A stretch of 64,000 nt of DNA from assembly GCA_038040345.1 (NCBI GenBank), contig JBBPIQ010000002.1:189747-253746 (forward strand). The letters run 5' to 3'. Of this stretch, positions 2,784 through 63,725 are shown in pieces. The translations under genes and the position numbers were made by a program. The notes under the pieces were generated by a model. That model had not been told where the DNA came from, made no database searches, and saw nothing but the letters and a program-made list of their open reading frames with translations. This DNA is from Chloroflexota bacterium. GTDB lineage: Bacteria > Chloroflexota > Limnocylindria > P2-11E. Position 1 is the first letter of the stretch; each line of letters starts with the position of its first letter.

Positions 2784-2973
2784 CCCCGGACGCACCCGCG
2801 AGCGGGTCCTGTCCAAGGGGTAGGGGCCCCTGTCGGCGTAGCCGCTACGCGGGTCCCTCCCTCAGCGCACCCTCCCCGCCTTGCAGCTCTCTGTCGTTCG
2901 CTGCGGGCGGGGCCCCGGGGCACCCGCGCTTCGTGAGAGACCCGCTGCGCCGTGCCACCCGCTCGCGGCTCCC

Positions 2974-4916: not shown

Positions 4917-6734
4917 CTAGCGGGTCGACCAGACCAACAGCGCGACGATGAGGACCGCGGCCAGCCACACGCCGGCCCGCTGCTCGAAGAGCGCGAACCC
5001 ACCGGTGGCGACGGTCACGGCGCGCTCGAGCGCTCTAAACGTGGCGACTCCGGTGGGCACCGGGTCGGCCGCCCACACGAACCGTTGCAGTCGCGCGGCG
5101 AAGACCTGGAGGCCGGGCAGAAGCGGCCGCAGCATGCGCGCGGCGATGACGAGGATCGTCGCCGCGACGACCGAACCGATCGCGATGACCGGGTCGATCG
5201 GATCGAGCGGCCGTCGCAGAAGGGTGAGCGCGTCGGGGATCGGCAGCGACAGCAGGCTCGCGAGGAGCGCCGTGCTGAAAAGCGCGGCGACCGCGGCCGC
5301 GATATCGAGACCCGCCGGCGCTTCGCCCTGCGCCAGGCGCCGGCCGGCGTGCGCGAGCTCGAGCACGAGAACGACCATGACGACGAGAACCGCCGCCACC
5401 GCTGTCGTGGGATCCGCGGCGCTCGCCGCGCCGGTCGCGAGGCCGATGACACCGGTCACCGTCCAGACGCTCGTTGCCATGGTCGCCATATAGGCGCGAT
5501 GTGGCGGCATCCACACGCTCTCGAGGAGAGCGGCGAACGCCGCGCCCACCAGGATGAACAGGCCGGACGCGAGCGCGATCGGCGTGCCGACCGCGAACGC
5601 GATCCATAGGGTCGCAAGGGTCACGTCGTGGCGCGCGACCTCCCACTGCTCGGGAAGGGCGAGCGAGACGGCGGCGGCGTAGAGAACGGTCAGCGCAGCT
5701 GCCGCGAGCACGAAGTAGCTCCAATGGAGATCGTCCCACCCAGCCAGCACCGCGGCCGCGACGATCGTCGTCACGATCCCGCGCCGCGACGCGCGACCGC
5801 GCGCGCGCGCCCGCAGCGCGAATGCGACGAGCACAAGCCCGAGCAGAACGAGCCGCGGCACGAGTCCGATGAGCGGAAGCCCAAGGGTCGAAAGGTCGAT
5901 GCTCGTCACCCCGAGAAGACGAAGCAGCACGATCGACGCGGCCACACCCGCTGGCATCGCAAGGAGCCCGCGCAGTGGTTCGCGTTCCGCGGCGAGCAGA
6001 GCCTGGGCGGGCTGATAGCGCCACGGCACGAACGGGTAGAGGCCCGCGAAGAGGCCGGCGCCCGCGGTCGCGGCGAGGATCGCGCCAGGACTGATGGCGC
6101 CTGGGGAGATCGCGTCAAAGGCGAGTGACGCGCCTCCCTGCCGCGCGATGAGCAGCGCCGCCACGACGAATCCCTGGATCCCGACCGCGAAATACCCCGC
6201 GATCCGCATCGCCGAAGGTGCCGGCGCCACGAGCAGCGTCGCGAAAGCGCTCACAGCGGCGAGGACCGCGATGGCGACCGCCGCCGCGACCAGGTCGACC
6301 GTGACCACCACGGCGATGAAGGCGAAGCCGATGGCCAGGGCGAGCGAAGGGAGGAAGCGCGGGGAGCTCGCCGACCGCGCGTTGGCGAGAAGTGCGGCCG
6401 CGACATACGCGAACCCTGCGGAGACGGCCACTGCGCCGAGGCCATCGAGTCGGTACGACGCTTGGATGGTCGGTCCTCCGGCGGCCGACCACTCCCACAA
6501 GGCTCGGCCCGCGGCGAGGGCCGGATCGGTGAGCTGATAGAGAAGAAGGGGCGATATAGCGCCCAAAGTGGCGACCAAGAGGGCGGTCGGCACGCGCCAT
6601 GCCTGTGCGATGCGTCGCGGGGCGACGAGCAGCGCGACCAGCGACAACGTGATCGCGGCCGCGAACAACGTGAATTCCGCTCGCACTATCACCCTGCGGT
6701 AAGGTAGCCGAGGTGGATTTGAGACTCCTCCCAC
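4917..6734 (-). CDS. large polytopic membrane protein, weakly NuoL/MrpA-like
   Basis: 605-aa hydrophobic ORF; SVWMPPHRAYMATMATSVWTV weakly resembles the WLPDA...SALIHAATMV motif; N-terminal boundary uncertain. Confidence 0.35.
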   Translation of the reverse strand: MGGVSNPPRLPYRRVIVRAEFTLFAAAITLSLVALLVAPRRIAQAWRVPTALLVATLGAISPLLLYQLTDPALAAGRALWEWSAAGGPTIQASYRLDGLGAVAVSAGFAYVAAALLANARSASSPRFLPSLALAIGFAFIAVVVTVDLVAAAVAIAVLAAVSAFATLLVAPAPSAMRIAGYFAVGIQGFVVAALLIARQGGASLAFDAISPGAISPGAILAATAGAGLFAGLYPFVPWRYQPAQALLAAEREPLRGLLAMPAGVAASIVLLRLLGVTSIDLSTLGLPLIGLVPRLVLLGLVLVAFALRARARGRASRRGIVTTIVAAAVLAGWDDLHWSYFVLAAAALTVLYAAAVSLALPEQWEVARHDVTLATLWIAFAVGTPIALASGLFILVGAAFAALLESVWMPPHRAYMATMATSVWTVTGVIGLATGAASAADPTTAVAAVLVVMVVLVLELAHAGRRLAQGEAPAGLDIAAAVAALFSTALLASLLSLPIPDALTLLRRPLDPIDPVIAIGSVVAATILVIAARMLRPLLPGLQVFAARLQRFVWAADPVPTGVATFRALERAVTVATGGFALFEQRAGVWLAAVLIVALLVWSTR

Positions 6735-56650: not shown

Positions 56651-56737
56651 GGAGGGGTGGCAGAGCGGTCGAATGCGGCGGTCTTGAAAACCGCTACGTC
56701 CTTAGGGGCGTCGTGGGTTCGAATCCCACTCCCTCCG
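56651..56737 (+). tRNA. tRNA-Ser (anticodon UGA)
   Basis: acceptor GGAGGGG/TCCCTCC, anticodon stem GCGGT/ACCGC with loop CTTGAAA, long variable arm, T-loop GTGGGTTCGAATCCCAC, discriminator G; CCA not encoded. Confidence 0.8.
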
Positions 56738-56744
56738 CAGTGTG

Positions 56745-58463: not shown

Positions 58464-59441
58464 GTGTCCGACATGAAGAACTCAAAGGCACTCGCTGCGA
58501 CGGTCGTCATCGCGCTCATCATTGCGATCGGCGCGATGGCAGGCACCGCTGCGAATGCGGCAACTTCCACTGTTCCCCTGGGAACGGCTGCCAGCTTCTC
58601 GGTCCTCGGCGGTCTGGCAGTGACCAACACAGGCCCGACCACCACCGACAAAGACGTAGGGGTTTGGCCCGGTACCTCGGTGGGCGCGTGGCCGCCCGGA
58701 ATAGCCGGCGGGGCAATCCACGCGGGTGACGCCGTCGCGCAGCAGGCCCAGAGCGACCTGACCACCGCGTATAACAACGCCGCAGGACGAACGCCGTTCA
58801 CGGTTGTGGGTGGCGATCTCGTCGGGCAGACCCTCGTTGGTGGCGTCTATAGAGGCGGCACGCTCGGTCTCACAGGAGTGCTGACCCTCGATGGGCAGAA
58901 CGATCCAGCGTCCGTCTGGATCTTCCAGACGCCGGCAACCCTCATCACCGGGTCGTCGAGTCTTGTGAGCTTCATCAACGGCGCGAGCCCGTGCAACGTC
59001 TTCTGGCAGGTCGGGAGCTCAGCGACTCTGGGAACGGGCTCCACCTTCGTCGGCACGATCATGGCTCTAACCAAGATCACGGTCACTACCGGCGTGACCG
59101 TCTATGGCAGAGCGCTGGCCCGGAATGATGCCGTGACATTGGACAACGACCGATTCCTAACGTCAGTGTGCGCATCTGCGCTAAACATTCCGCCGACGCG
59201 GCCACCGTTCACGGTTGCACCTTCGGCAACTCCGATAGCCGCGCCCACAGCGACCCCGATCGGTGCGGCCACTCCAACCGCAGCGCCGACAGTCGCTCCA
59301 ACCGCAGCGCCGACAGTTCATCTAACAGTCCTGCCATCAACGAGCACGGCGGAGTCGTGGGGTCCGCTCGCGCTGCTTGGCCTGGCCCTGGCCAGCTTCG
59401 GGGCGCTTCTGCTGCTTCGTAGACCACTTCGGAACTTCTAG
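58464..59441 (+). CDS. secreted DUF3494 (ice-binding-like) protein with Pro/Thr/Ala linker and C-terminal hydrophobic-basic tail
   Basis: signal peptide; LGTAASFSVLGGLAVTNTGPTT; PTAAPTVAPTAAPT linker; C-terminus LPSTSTAE + hydrophobic helix + RRPLRNF. Confidence 0.65.
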   Translation: MSDMKNSKALAATVVIALIIAIGAMAGTAANAATSTVPLGTAASFSVLGGLAVTNTGPTTTDKDVGVWPGTSVGAWPPGIAGGAIHAGDAVAQQAQSDLTTAYNNAAGRTPFTVVGGDLVGQTLVGGVYRGGTLGLTGVLTLDGQNDPASVWIFQTPATLITGSSSLVSFINGASPCNVFWQVGSSATLGTGSTFVGTIMALTKITVTTGVTVYGRALARNDAVTLDNDRFLTSVCASALNIPPTRPPFTVAPSATPIAAPTATPIGAATPTAAPTVAPTAAPTVHLTVLPSTSTAESWGPLALLGLALASFGALLLLRRPLRNF

Positions 59442-60294: not shown

Positions 60295-61008
60295 CTAGGC
60301 GCGGCCGGCGTGAGCCTTCGCGACGTCGCCGATGATCTCGGCGAGCTCCTTTGGCCGCGACCACATCGGCCAGTGGCTCGTCGGCAGGTCGACCCAGGTG
60401 ACATTGCGTAGCTCGGCGAGACCCCCGAGCCACGCCTGGCCCTCCTTGACCGCGTCCTTGTATTGCGCGGACGTGTACCCCGTGCACACGACCGTGCTCG
60501 GCACGTCGAGGCGCGCGGCGTTCGTCAGCTTGGCCGCCCCGCGCAGCGCGGCGCCCGGCTCGGGAACGGCCCGGCGCCGGAACGTCTCGAGCTGCTCCTT
60601 GGAGAGCCCGTCGAGGTTCTCGTCTGCCGCGAGCTTCTCGAGCGAGGGCATCGGCTTCTCCGCCGCGTCGAAGCTCGCGTCGAGCGCGGCCGTCGCTGGG
60701 CCGGTGTCGACGTAGACAATCGCCGCGAGCTGCTTGGGGATGCGGTCGGTAACCGCATACCCGGGGGCCCCGGCACCACTATGCACCGCGAGCACGACAC
60801 GATCCCCCGCGGCCTTCACCGCGTTGCAGATCGCGTCGACGTGGTCGGCGAACGTGATCGCGGATCGATCGGCATCCGCCGACTCGAGACCGGGCAGCGT
60901 CACCGCCGTCACGCGGTGACCGTCGGCACGCAACGCGGCGGCGACCTCGTCCCACGCCCACGCGCCGAGCCAGAAACCGGGAACCAGGACGATCGGTGCA
61001 GTCGTCAT
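60295..61008 (-). CDS. alpha/beta hydrolase fold protein
   Basis: start MTTAPIVLVPGFWLGAWAW with upstream GAGGA; nucleophile-elbow-like LAVHSGAG. Confidence 0.6.
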   Translation of the reverse strand: MTTAPIVLVPGFWLGAWAWDEVAAALRADGHRVTAVTLPGLESADADRSAITFADHVDAICNAVKAAGDRVVLAVHSGAGAPGYAVTDRIPKQLAAIVYVDTGPATAALDASFDAAEKPMPSLEKLAADENLDGLSKEQLETFRRRAVPEPGAALRGAAKLTNAARLDVPSTVVCTGYTSAQYKDAVKEGQAWLGGLAELRNVTWVDLPTSHWPMWSRPKELAEIIGDVAKAHAGRA

Positions 61009-61086
61009 TCCTCGGACCCTAGCGCGGGCAACGACATCGCGCATCCGGGCGGCTAGAGTCCATCCAGAAATCCTCGGAGGTGCGTC

Positions 61087-61167
61087 ATGTCCTGCGCTTG
61101 TGGAGCGTGCTGCGGTAAATGCTGTTCCGGCGTGAGCACCGAGACCAAGCCCAAGCCGACCAAGTAG
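61087..61167 (+). CDS. 26-aa cysteine-rich micropeptide (metallothionein-like or leader peptide)
   Basis: GGAGG 6 nt upstream of ATG; MSCACGACCGKCCSGVSTETKPKPTK, 7 Cys in 13 residues. Confidence 0.4.
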   Translation: MSCACGACCGKCCSGVSTETKPKPTK

Positions 61168-61280
61168 CTTCGAATCCCGTCCGGGGTATGCTCCCCGCGG
61201 CCCGGGGGAGGATGCGCGCTTCCAGAGATCGCGACCCGGACCTTCGCGCGTCGGTGTGAGCGCGGCGGAGGAGGGACTGC

Positions 61281-62738
61281 ATGGCTGCACGGGCGGCACG
61301 AACGGCCAGAAGGCCGGAGGCGCCGGCGATTCTTGAGCGGTTATTCAAGCTTCGCGAGAACTCGACCACGGTAAGCACCGAGGTCATTGGCGGCATCACG
61401 ACGTTCTTCGTGATGGCCTACATCATCGCGTTGAACCCGATCATCCTGAACTATGTCGGGAACGCGGGCCTTCAGGACAAGAACCTCGGGCCCGGCTTCC
61501 CGCAAACGGTCGCGATGACCGCGCTCTGCGCCGGCGTCCTCACGATCGCGATGGGTCTTTACGCGAACAGGCCGTTCGCGATGGCCGCCGGCCTCGGTCT
61601 CAACGCGGTGGTCGCGTACCAGCTCGTTCTCGGCACTCCGCCGCTGCCGTGGCAGGCCGCCATGGGGATCATCCTCATGGAAGGCATCGTCATCACCGCG
61701 CTCGTCCTGAGCGGCCTGCGCGAGGCCATCCTCAATGCGATCCCGATGCAGCTCAAACAGGCGATCGGCGTGGGCATCGGCCTCTTCATTCTGCTGATTG
61801 GACTCGTGAATGCCGGTTTCGTGACCCGCGGCGTGGGCACAGTCGTCACGTTGTCGCCTCTTAACACAGGCCCAATCCTGACGTTCGTCATCGGTCTCAT
61901 CATCACGCTCGCGCTCTTCGCCCGCGGCGTGCGGGCGGCGCTACTGCTCGGCATCGTCGGGACGACGATCGTCGCGGGTCTCCTACACGCGGTCTTCTCG
62001 ACGTACGTGCCCTCGACGGCTCCAGGCACGGCGCAGCTTCCCACGTCATGGTTCGAATTCCCCAACTTCTCGAACGCGCTCAGCGGACTGAACTTCAGCG
62101 CGTTCGCGACCATCGGCGTCCTCGCGACGATCCTCGCGGTGTTCACGATCATGCTGTCGGACTTCTTCGACACGATGGGCACCGTCATCGGCATTGGCGG
62201 CCAAGCCGGGTGGCTCGACAGCAAGGGCCGGCTCCCTGGCATCCGCAAGATCCTTCTTGTCGACTCGGTCGGTGCGGCGTTCGGCGGCCTCATGGGCGCG
62301 TCGAGCAACACGACCTATATCGAGTCTGCCGCGGGCGTCTCGTCCGGCGCGCGGACGGGCCTCGCGAGCGTGGTCACCGGCATCCTGTTCCTCGCCGCGA
62401 TGTTCATCGCGCCGGTCGTGGCGGTCATCCCGCCTGAGGCGACCGCGCCCGCTCTGGTCATCGTCGGATTCCTCATGGCGGGCATCGCGTCGAAGATCGA
62501 CTTCACCGATCTCGAGCTGGGTCTCCCCGCCCTGCTCACGATCGTGATCATGCCGTTCACGTACTCGATCACGAACGGCATCGGCGCAGGGTTCATCACC
62601 TTCGTCTTCATCAAGCTCGCACGCGGCAAGGCGAACGAGGTCCATCCCCTCATGTGGGGCGTCGCGCTCGCCTTCCTCCTGTACTTCGCGCAAAACGTCT
62701 ACGCCAGCGCGTTCGGCGTGGGTGGGTACCGCGAGTAG
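61281..62738 (+). CDS. NCS2 family nucleobase permease (AzgA-like purine permease)
   Basis: GGITTFFVMAYIIALNP...; about 13 TM helices; true start may be slightly downstream. Confidence 0.8.
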   Translation: MAARAARTARRPEAPAILERLFKLRENSTTVSTEVIGGITTFFVMAYIIALNPIILNYVGNAGLQDKNLGPGFPQTVAMTALCAGVLTIAMGLYANRPFAMAAGLGLNAVVAYQLVLGTPPLPWQAAMGIILMEGIVITALVLSGLREAILNAIPMQLKQAIGVGIGLFILLIGLVNAGFVTRGVGTVVTLSPLNTGPILTFVIGLIITLALFARGVRAALLLGIVGTTIVAGLLHAVFSTYVPSTAPGTAQLPTSWFEFPNFSNALSGLNFSAFATIGVLATILAVFTIMLSDFFDTMGTVIGIGGQAGWLDSKGRLPGIRKILLVDSVGAAFGGLMGASSNTTYIESAAGVSSGARTGLASVVTGILFLAAMFIAPVVAVIPPEATAPALVIVGFLMAGIASKIDFTDLELGLPALLTIVIMPFTYSITNGIGAGFITFVFIKLARGKANEVHPLMWGVALAFLLYFAQNVYASAFGVGGYRE

Positions 62739-63619: not shown

Positions 63620-63712
63620 GGGGAGGTCGCATAGTTGGCCTAGTGCGCGGGTTTGCTAAACCCGTAAGGATGCCGTAAGGCGCCTTCGAGGGTTCGAATC
63701 CCTCCCTCCCCG
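63620..63712 (+). tRNA. tRNA-Ser (anticodon GCU)
   Basis: acceptor GGGGAGG/CCTCCCC, anticodon stem CGGGT/ACCCG with loop TTGCTAA, long variable arm, T-loop GAGGGTTCGAATCCCTC. Confidence 0.8.
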
Positions 63713-63725
63713 CAGTTGTGATGTC

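Follow-up and report, generated by a model that had tools for sequence, protein, structure and literature searches.

A conserved six-cysteine micro-gene missed by annotation in Limnocylindria-type Chloroflexota and its possible metallothionein-like product

In a 64,000-nucleotide (nt) stretch of contig JBBPIQ010000002.1 (assembly GCA_038040345.1, positions 189,747 to 253,746; hereafter the window) from a Chloroflexota bacterium of the Limnocylindria lineage, we identified a 26-codon, cysteine-rich open reading frame (ORF) that, on sequence comparison, is very probably a real and conserved gene previously invisible to annotation. The substitution pattern across its copies shows strong purifying selection on the encoded protein, and the occurrence of the micro-gene does not depend on gene context. 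For its product, the best-supported mechanism, to which composition and conservation lend about an even chance, is that of an ultra-short metal-thiolate (metallothionein-like) micro-protein founding a new family. Judged by its distribution, the micro-ORF stands alone and is not a leader peptide of the NCS2 permease gene that follows it in the window. The micro-gene comprises the following features:

61087–61167, plus strand: micro-gene, 26 codons and a stop, encoding MSCACGACCGKCCSGVSTETKPKPTK (by translation)
61076–61080, plus strand: Shine-Dalgarno (SD) sequence GGAGG, 6 nt before the ATG, read from the sequence
61053–61058, plus strand: TAGAGT, a -10-like hexamer and putative promoter of the micro-gene, proposed from conservation only

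An earlier note on this DNA had claimed an unannotated 26-codon Cys-rich ORF here, and both its translation and the public gene calls of the same contig (L201), which list no gene at the site, bear this out; the strong ribosome-binding site described there is likewise present. The start of the micro-ORF is fixed, because an in-frame stop codon (TAG, 61054–61056) lies upstream and the interval up to the ATG contains no further start codon. Residues 3–13 form a six-Cys core and the remainder a Lys/Pro/Thr/Glu-rich tail. The Cys residues occupy positions 3, 5, 8, 9, 12 and 13, giving a spacing of C-x-C-x2-CC-x2-CC with two CC doublets; the note's count of seven Cys in 13 residues was mistaken and becomes six within 11.

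Altogether we found at least nine intact copies of the micro-gene, encoding eight distinct peptides of 24–32 residues, in soil contigs of high guanine-plus-cytosine (GC) content from Limnocylindria-type Chloroflexota. All copies share the core M-(S/A)-C-x-C-G-x-C-C-G-x-C-C-S-G followed by a Lys/Pro/Thr-rich tail, the six Cys are invariant in all members, and the only departures within the core are S2A, A7V and the variant found in L131 (A4N, A7N, K11A). Eight of the nine intact copies have GGAGG 6–9 nt ahead of the ATG; in L131 it lies ~14 nt upstream, with AAGGA at ~8 nt. Across codons 1–15 of the seven close copies, variable sites are distributed 1/1/10 over codon positions 1, 2 and 3, and the probability of finding 10 or more of the 12 at third positions is P = 5e-4. 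Pairwise Nei-Gojobori ratios of nonsynonymous to synonymous substitution (dN/dS) among full-length pairs were 0.00–0.08, with dS values of 0.6 up to more than 1. Differences in tail length between copies amount to whole codons, the flanks cannot be aligned between contexts, and RNAalifold on the micro-gene alignment returned a covariation term of +0.05, giving no support for a conserved RNA structure.

These results bear on the possibility that the ORF arose by chance in intergenic DNA of high GC content, or that it is an RNA or DNA element, conserved but without coding function, that is open by accident. High-GC genomes hold many spurious open frames (the window has 67% GC), and throughout this region the minus strand is open too. 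No other stretch of the window, in any frame, packs six Cys codons into 11, and such a run was reached in one of 200 second-order Markov simulations of the window. This is unusual, yet it would not decide the question in a scan of a whole genome; the deciding evidence is conservation elsewhere. Against an accidental frame, nine copies in unrelated flanks keep the start, SD, frame and stop, changes are concentrated at third codon positions with dN/dS at most 0.08, tail indels are whole-codon, and there is no RNA covariation. The substitution pattern already contradicts a chance or non-coding origin, which we consider scarcely credible.

The copies came to light by several routes. Scanning metagenome contigs with a degenerate DNA pattern for M-x-C-x-C-x2-CC-x2-CC yielded three true homologues among the 120 stretches listed, all in high-GC contigs: L132 (MACACGACCGKCCSGASTEKPKTNK), L150 (MSCACGACCGKCCSGVSTEKPKPSK) and L131 (MACNCGNCCGACCSGQTSKPEPIQPEPKQPST, the most divergent copy). 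That listing was dominated by (TGY)n repeats, so the count is a lower bound that underestimates the family; a repeat-proof pattern such as ATGKCNTGYNNNTGYGGNNNNTGYTGYGGNNNNTGYTGYWSNGG would suit further searches. A scan of viral contigs with a tighter motif returned repeats only. We also searched protein databases, once with an artificial query joining three family peptides, whose matches are valid only as local matches, and once by an exhaustive HMMER search over 1.84 billion representatives. In both searches the micro-protein surfaced solely at the C-terminus of overlong ORF calls of 84–203 residues (P0001–P0004 and P0006), which are a systematic gene-calling artefact in high-GC metagenome-assembled genomes (MAGs). 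The contigs of these calls gave the copies in L202, L203, L205 and L206, plus a 5'-truncated copy in L204 (540–610; …CCGKCCSGASTEKPKPSK) that has neither the ATG nor the first Cys. In L205 (772–1000), a nuoF-like N-terminal fragment runs straight into the upstream motif of the micro-gene. The L204 and L205 contigs are very short, and their arrangements may represent pseudogenes, rearrangements or assembly chimeras. The peptide had no match in Pfam or NCBIfam (E<=10), among PDB chain sequences (phmmer, E<=10) or in plasmids (tblastn), and literature searches found no description of the micro-protein family or of the permease leader described below.

The earlier note would have counted the ORF as refuted if neither it nor its Cys spacing were conserved in relatives that keep the flanking genes; this comparison came out in favour of the ORF. 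One such relative, L210, whose hydrolase is 88% identical to that of the window, retains the whole order of hydrolase, ORF, leader, permease and XdhC; its ORF encodes MSCACGACCGKCCSGVSTETKPKPSK and differs from that of the window by seven synonymous changes and one conservative change. Among the hydrolase relatives traced, only L210 carries a copy. The micro-ORF is absent from L207, L208/L209 and L211: in L208/L209 (93% identical) the sequence upstream of the hydrolase is unrelated to the window, and in L207 (92%) and L211 (85%) other neighbours lie upstream and the locus contains no copy at all. We therefore rejected the idea that the micro-gene travels with the hydrolase.

Upstream of the micro-gene, six copies carry a TAnnnT hexamer 15–22 nt 5' of the SD, ~28–35 nt upstream of the ATG, with the forms TAGAGTC in the window, L210, L203 and L205, TATATT in L206 and TATCCT in L150. 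A scan of 60900–61400 for consensus sigma-70 promoters and terminators found no sites. In four copies a 22-nt motif, CTACGAAGCCGCCAGCCGTACG, lies 5–6 nt upstream of the -10-like hexamer (in L150 as a variant), the flanks being otherwise unrelated, at these positions:

L203, 858–879: 22-nt motif
L205, 932–953: 22-nt motif
L206, 1122–1143: 22-nt motif
L150, ~6287–6308, minus strand: 22-nt motif

The distance from CTACGAAGCCGCCAGCCGTACG to the ATG varies (38–44 nt), and the motif is therefore non-coding and presumably regulatory; it could serve as an operator or as a -35 region of unusual type. It is absent from the window and from L210, and we recognised no similarity to a known metal-regulator box.

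In the window, the upstream and divergent neighbour of the micro-ORF is an alpha/beta hydrolase gene (Abhydrolase_6; 60298–61008, minus strand). Downstream, the permease gene (61281–62735; Xan_ur_permease, 107 bits) is followed by an XdhC-family gene; its ATG at 61281 leaves a spacer of 113 nt after the micro-ORF, in keeping with the ~110 nt given earlier. Overall, we found the micro-gene in seven distinct contexts, in five of which a convergent gene lies 0–320 nt downstream:

Context 1 (window, L210): a same-strand permease follows the micro-gene
Context 2 (L150): M1 peptidase on one side, convergent MoaA ending 16 nt away on the other
Context 3 (L203/L206): a convergent gene ends ~9 nt away
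Context 4 (L205): a convergent ORF ends 10 nt away
Context 5 (L202): behind typA, with a convergent gene 320 nt downstream
Context 6 (L132): behind typA, with an AAA_33 kinase gene on the same strand 215 nt downstream
Context 7 (L131): converges on a cytochrome c gene, overlapping its end

The earlier note had offered, as an alternative to metal binding, a Cys-sensing leader peptide. On this reading, ribosomes short of Cys-tRNA would stall at the Cys codons, thereby rearranging the spacer hairpins and turning on the permease and XdhC genes. The consecutive Cys codons suit such a device, as do the position 113 nt upstream of a co-oriented gene in the window (such a gene also lies downstream in L210), a hairpin in the permease leader able to sequester the permease SD, and the precedent of mycobacterial polycysteine short-ORF (sORF) attenuators (bioRxiv 10.1101/834739). 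Nevertheless, in five of the seven contexts the next gene is convergent, and there is therefore nothing downstream to regulate. Conversely, the permease leader and its hairpin are kept in L001–L011 without a Cys-rich sORF; a search upstream of the permease homologues L001–L022 found no such sORF. Conservation with L001–L011 starts only at TATGCT, downstream of the ORF: in L001–L006 the sequence directly upstream of the permease is near-invariant from this hexamer (61187) onwards, and further upstream, including the ORF region, it is unrelated and holds other genes. The genes downstream in the window serve purine uptake (the NCS2 permease) and molybdenum cofactor (Moco) maturation (the XdhC-family factor), not cysteine metabolism. 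Non-Cys residues (Gly, Ser and the character of the tail) are also conserved, and stalling needs none of these. Nor does the region 61060–61290, which the note had suggested folding, fold better than its dinucleotide shuffles (z = +1.16, with 175 of 200 equalling or surpassing it). The seven unrelated contexts and the leaders kept without the ORF refute the proposal, and we regard a leader-peptide function as vanishingly unlikely.

The permease does have conserved leader sequence of its own, with the following features:

61187–61192, plus strand: TATGCT, -10-like box of the permease gene, where conservation with relatives begins (alignments A1, A2)
61215–61284, plus strand: conserved 5' leader of the NCS2 permease, with blocks CGCTTCC and GTCGGTGTGAGC, then the SD GGAGGAGGG at 61267–61275 and the ATG at 61281
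61241–61271, plus strand: putative SD-sequestering hairpin, with 5' arm CCTTCGCGCGT (61241–51), loop CGGTGTGA (61252–59) and 3' arm GCGC-G-GCGGAGG (61260–71)

At the position of 61187–61192 the relatives carry TATGCT, TATGAT, TAGCAT, TAGAAT or TAGACT, and the sequence upstream of the hexamer is unrelated between loci. The leader, of ~70–95 nt, is conserved in L001–L011 and L210 with the blocks CGCTTCC and GCCGGTGTGAGC (also as (G/C)CCGGTGTGAGC) and a purine-rich SD; at least 11 relatives (L001–L011, 75–95% identical to the permease at the protein level, which places the window in Limnocylindria-type soil Chloroflexota) keep it without the micro-ORF. A covariance model of the leader (R1) matches the window, L210 and L001–L011 at 38–87 bits and nothing upstream of the more distant permeases L012–L080. 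Rfam gave no match at gathering score in the window and, for 60900–61400 at E<=10, only a spurious microRNA match on the opposite strand; elsewhere in the window the leader motif CGCCGGTGTGAGC shows no enrichment. Within the leader, a pyrimidine tract, CCUUC (61241–45), can pair with the permease SD, and the loop of the resulting hairpin is conserved as CGGUGUGA. This hairpin, which we defined by hand, is present in minimum free energy folds of the close group, and on alignment A5, 80% of cells pair, compared with 42–62% when the partners are slid. Five of its pairs change on both sides, for example from G-C in the window to A-U in L004, a number that 8 of 500 shuffles reach; RNAalifold alone found a weak consensus on the permease leader. 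Support for the hairpin is modest. We propose the permease leader as a separate, clade-specific candidate for a regulatory leader, possibly a riboswitch or a translational control element of a purine-type transporter.

The two spacer hairpins of the earlier note both exist in the sequence, although, as reported above, the region containing them folds no better than shuffled sequence. Hairpin 1 (GGGG at 61183–86, CCCC at 61193–96) lacks conservation, and the -10-like TATGCT of the permease forms its loop. The close group keeps hairpin 2 (CCCCG at 61193–97, CGGGG at 61203–07); at this site L005 carries another self-complementary pair, CGAGGTC/GACCTCG. L210 differs from the window in carrying an extra GC-rich palindromic hairpin, GCGGCGCC-N10-GGCGCCGC, between the micro-gene stop and the permease -10-like box (~2810–2836, minus strand); it has no U-tract and may be a terminator-like insulator.

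Turning to the micro-protein itself, we weighed the metallothionein-like reading against the features that characterise this class. Six of the 26 residues of the window peptide are Cys (23%), arranged in CxC, CC and CxxC motifs with Gly after Cys, and the array C-x-C-G-x-C-C-G-x-C-C is invariant in all members. At 24–32 residues, all nine members fall below the limit of about 10 kDa used for metallothioneins (Kagi/Binz-type), and F, Y, W and H are absent from all eight distinct peptides, in line with the scarcity of aromatic residues and His expected of the class. We picture a free-standing gene with its own ribosome-binding site, putatively expressed from its own -10-like promoter box, whose N-terminal 13–15 residues, (M)-S/A-C-x-C-G-x-C-C-G-x-C-C-S-G, would set six thiolates within 11 residues. 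These would be too closely packed for the protein to adopt a fold of its own and would instead wrap a small polynuclear metal-thiolate cluster, in the manner of the 26-residue fungal Cu-thioneins; Cu(I)4-6 or Zn/Cd2-3 clusters are candidates. The tail, variable and charged (Lys/Pro/Thr/Glu), would remain unstructured and hold the micro-protein in solution. The micro-protein would then buffer or sequester soft metal ions, copper being favoured, and would play no part in regulating the neighbouring permease, which has its own leader. The promoter, expression, metal binding and metal identity of the micro-gene and its product are what we infer from these features.

The one metal-related context is that of L131, where the ATG of the micro-gene lies 5 nt past the stop of a YHS-domain gene. 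The ortholog of this gene (70% identity, E = 2e-25; YHS match 27 bits) resides in a locus with a FUR-family regulator, CopC-CopD-YtkA, cytochrome c and a cupredoxin/CopI-like gene, with ZnuABC on the same contig. A further observation concerns the end of the L131 copy: its last codons (…AAGCAGCCCTCGACTTAG, KQPST*; L131:9137-9432, minus strand) resemble the end of the orthologous YHS gene of L232 (…AAGCCCTCGACGTAG, KPST*; L232:5093-5518), and the L131 micro-gene may thus owe its position to insertion into the 3' end of the YHS gene, or be a fusion remnant. We considered whether the micro-gene travels with the CopCD locus and rejected this, since L232–L238 have no copy.

Several points count against a metallothionein. 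Only one of the seven contexts is metal-related, and the others (alpha/beta hydrolase and purine permease, M1 peptidase and MoaA, typA twice, ydhR, and a nuoE fragment) offer no functional pointer. The 27-bit YHS match lies below the Pfam cut-off of 30.3, and the micro-gene is absent from L232–L238, the relatives of the L131 copper locus, so the copper link is not conserved. No similarity to any known metallothionein family was detected in Pfam, NCBIfam or PDB. Six Cys are at the low end for a cluster-forming metallothionein, and Cys-rich peptides can serve other roles. Because no curated library recognises the peptide, the argument for a metallothionein draws on composition and one context, and the function is deduced from sequence. 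The metallothionein-like peptide suggested in the earlier note thus fits the conservation, the invariant Cys, the composition and one copper locus, while the metal binding itself is predicted.

We also asked how well the same evidence would suit a conserved micro-protein with another role, such as a thiol or redox buffer, a persulfide or sulfur relay, a tiny iron-sulfur or Mo/Cu chaperone, or a regulator acting in trans by binding a larger protein. Everything that argues for a real gene under selection holds for these as well, and most contexts are not metal-related. Moco genes adjoin three loci (XdhC in the window and L210, MoaA in L150), and one context pairs the micro-gene with a YHS-domain protein; these neighbours could hint at a partner-specific role over bulk sequestration. 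Yet no partner is conserved across contexts, the Moco proximity may be coincidental, and the composition is a textbook metallothionein signature, with nothing pointing specifically to the alternatives; we regard such a role as the main rival, though less likely than a metallothionein. A more specific and more speculative version draws on the translational coupling to the YHS protein in L131 and the XdhC or MoaA neighbours in three other loci. On these grounds the micro-protein would be the founding member of a bacterial Cys6 micro-protein class acting in trans on partners, as a Cu/Mo-S or sulfur mini-chaperone or as a metal or redox sensor, and spreading among Limnocylindria genomes as a self-contained promoter-SD-ORF mini-cassette. 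We think this improbable.

A short Cys/Gly/Ser-rich peptide with a variable, seemingly dispensable tail could also be the precursor of a ribosomally synthesized and post-translationally modified peptide (RiPP), such as a thiazole/thiazoline or thioether peptide or a metallophore, with the core right after the Met and the tail as a C-terminal follower. Precursors with an N-terminal core and a follower peptide are known, bottromycin being an example. Here, however, no cyclodehydratase, radical S-adenosylmethionine (SAM)/SPASM maturase, multinuclear non-heme iron-dependent oxidative (MNIO) enzyme, protease or exporter is linked to the micro-gene in any of the seven contexts. The radical-SAM gene beside the L150 copy is a canonical MoaA with a Mob_synth_C domain, and the NCBIfam RiPP precursor models gave no match. 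We judge a RiPP precursor very unlikely.

Elsewhere in the window, the minus-strand hydrolase frame (60295–61299) is open for 97 codons upstream of the real start, which explains a 331-residue database version of the protein (P0037). Two genes upstream, a 325-residue protein (58464–59441) carries an Ice-binding-like domain (PF11999, E = 1.5e-53), a surprising find in a MAG of a soil Chloroflexota bacterium. Two tRNA-Ser genes with anticodons TGA and GCT flank the region (56651–56738 and 63620–63713), the second directly after the XdhC-family gene.

If the micro-protein binds metal as the metallothionein-like reading predicts, it would represent a new family, and to our knowledge no shorter prokaryotic metallothionein is known. 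Its source lineage, Limnocylindria, is abundant in soil and essentially uncultured. Annotation hides such genes, which at 24–28 codons lie below what gene callers appear to report, and in databases of 1.8–5.8 billion proteins the micro-protein is visible only as the C-terminal end of over-extended calls. Its size of 26 residues makes it a cheap and tractable experimental target, open to chemical synthesis (as SCACGACCGKCCSGVSTETKPKPTK) and to direct metal titration. As a by-product, the conserved, clade-specific 5' leader of a purine-type permease, absent from Rfam, provides a candidate regulatory RNA.

Among known systems, the mycobacterial polycysteine sORFs are leaderless, lie at the 5' end of cysteine-metabolism operons with conserved linkage, and act in cis by ribosome stalling (Canestrari et al., bioRxiv 10.1101/834739). 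Like them, the window micro-ORF is short, contains consecutive Cys codons, belongs to a high-GC bacterium and escaped annotation pipelines. In contrast to them, it has a strong SD, occurs in unrelated contexts mostly without a downstream cistron, and conserves non-Cys residues. Whereas the mycobacterial sORFs sit on leaderless mRNAs, an SD and a -10-like box lie upstream of the micro-gene, the start site being predicted from sequence. The operon linkage of the mycobacterial 'Cys ribulon' gives way to seven contexts, and in place of cysteine or sulfur metabolism the downstream genes in the window encode an NCS2 permease and an XdhC-family factor.

The bacterial metallothioneins SmtA/BmtA (metallothionein family 14) and MymT provide a comparison class as prokaryotic, cytosolic, small Cys-rich metal-sequestering proteins, and the Cys region of SmtA also opens with a C-A-C motif. 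SmtA/BmtA and MymT have ~53–56 residues, and SmtA uses His ligands and a zinc-finger-like fold. The micro-protein falls outside family 14: it has no Pfam, NCBIfam or PDB match and no His, is half the length and has a different Cys spacing.

The closest resemblance in size is to the fungal family-8 Cu-metallothioneins of Neurospora crassa and Agaricus bisporus, in which the Cys are spaced C-x-C-x5-C-x-C-x3-C-x-C-x2-C. This is an analogy only, since the micro-protein has no PDB match at E<=10 and its spacing differs from that pattern. The fungal peptides come from eukaryotic hosts and are built from CxC units, with neither the CC doublets nor the Lys/Pro/Thr tail of the micro-protein. The two nevertheless share a near-equal length and Cys count, CxC motifs with Gly, Ser or Ala between the Cys, the lack of aromatic residues and His, a free-standing nature, and a size too small for metal-free folding (PMC4755600). 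With 26 residues and seven Cys, the Cu-thioneins of Neurospora and Agaricus show that a metallothionein of such a size is viable (PMC4755600).
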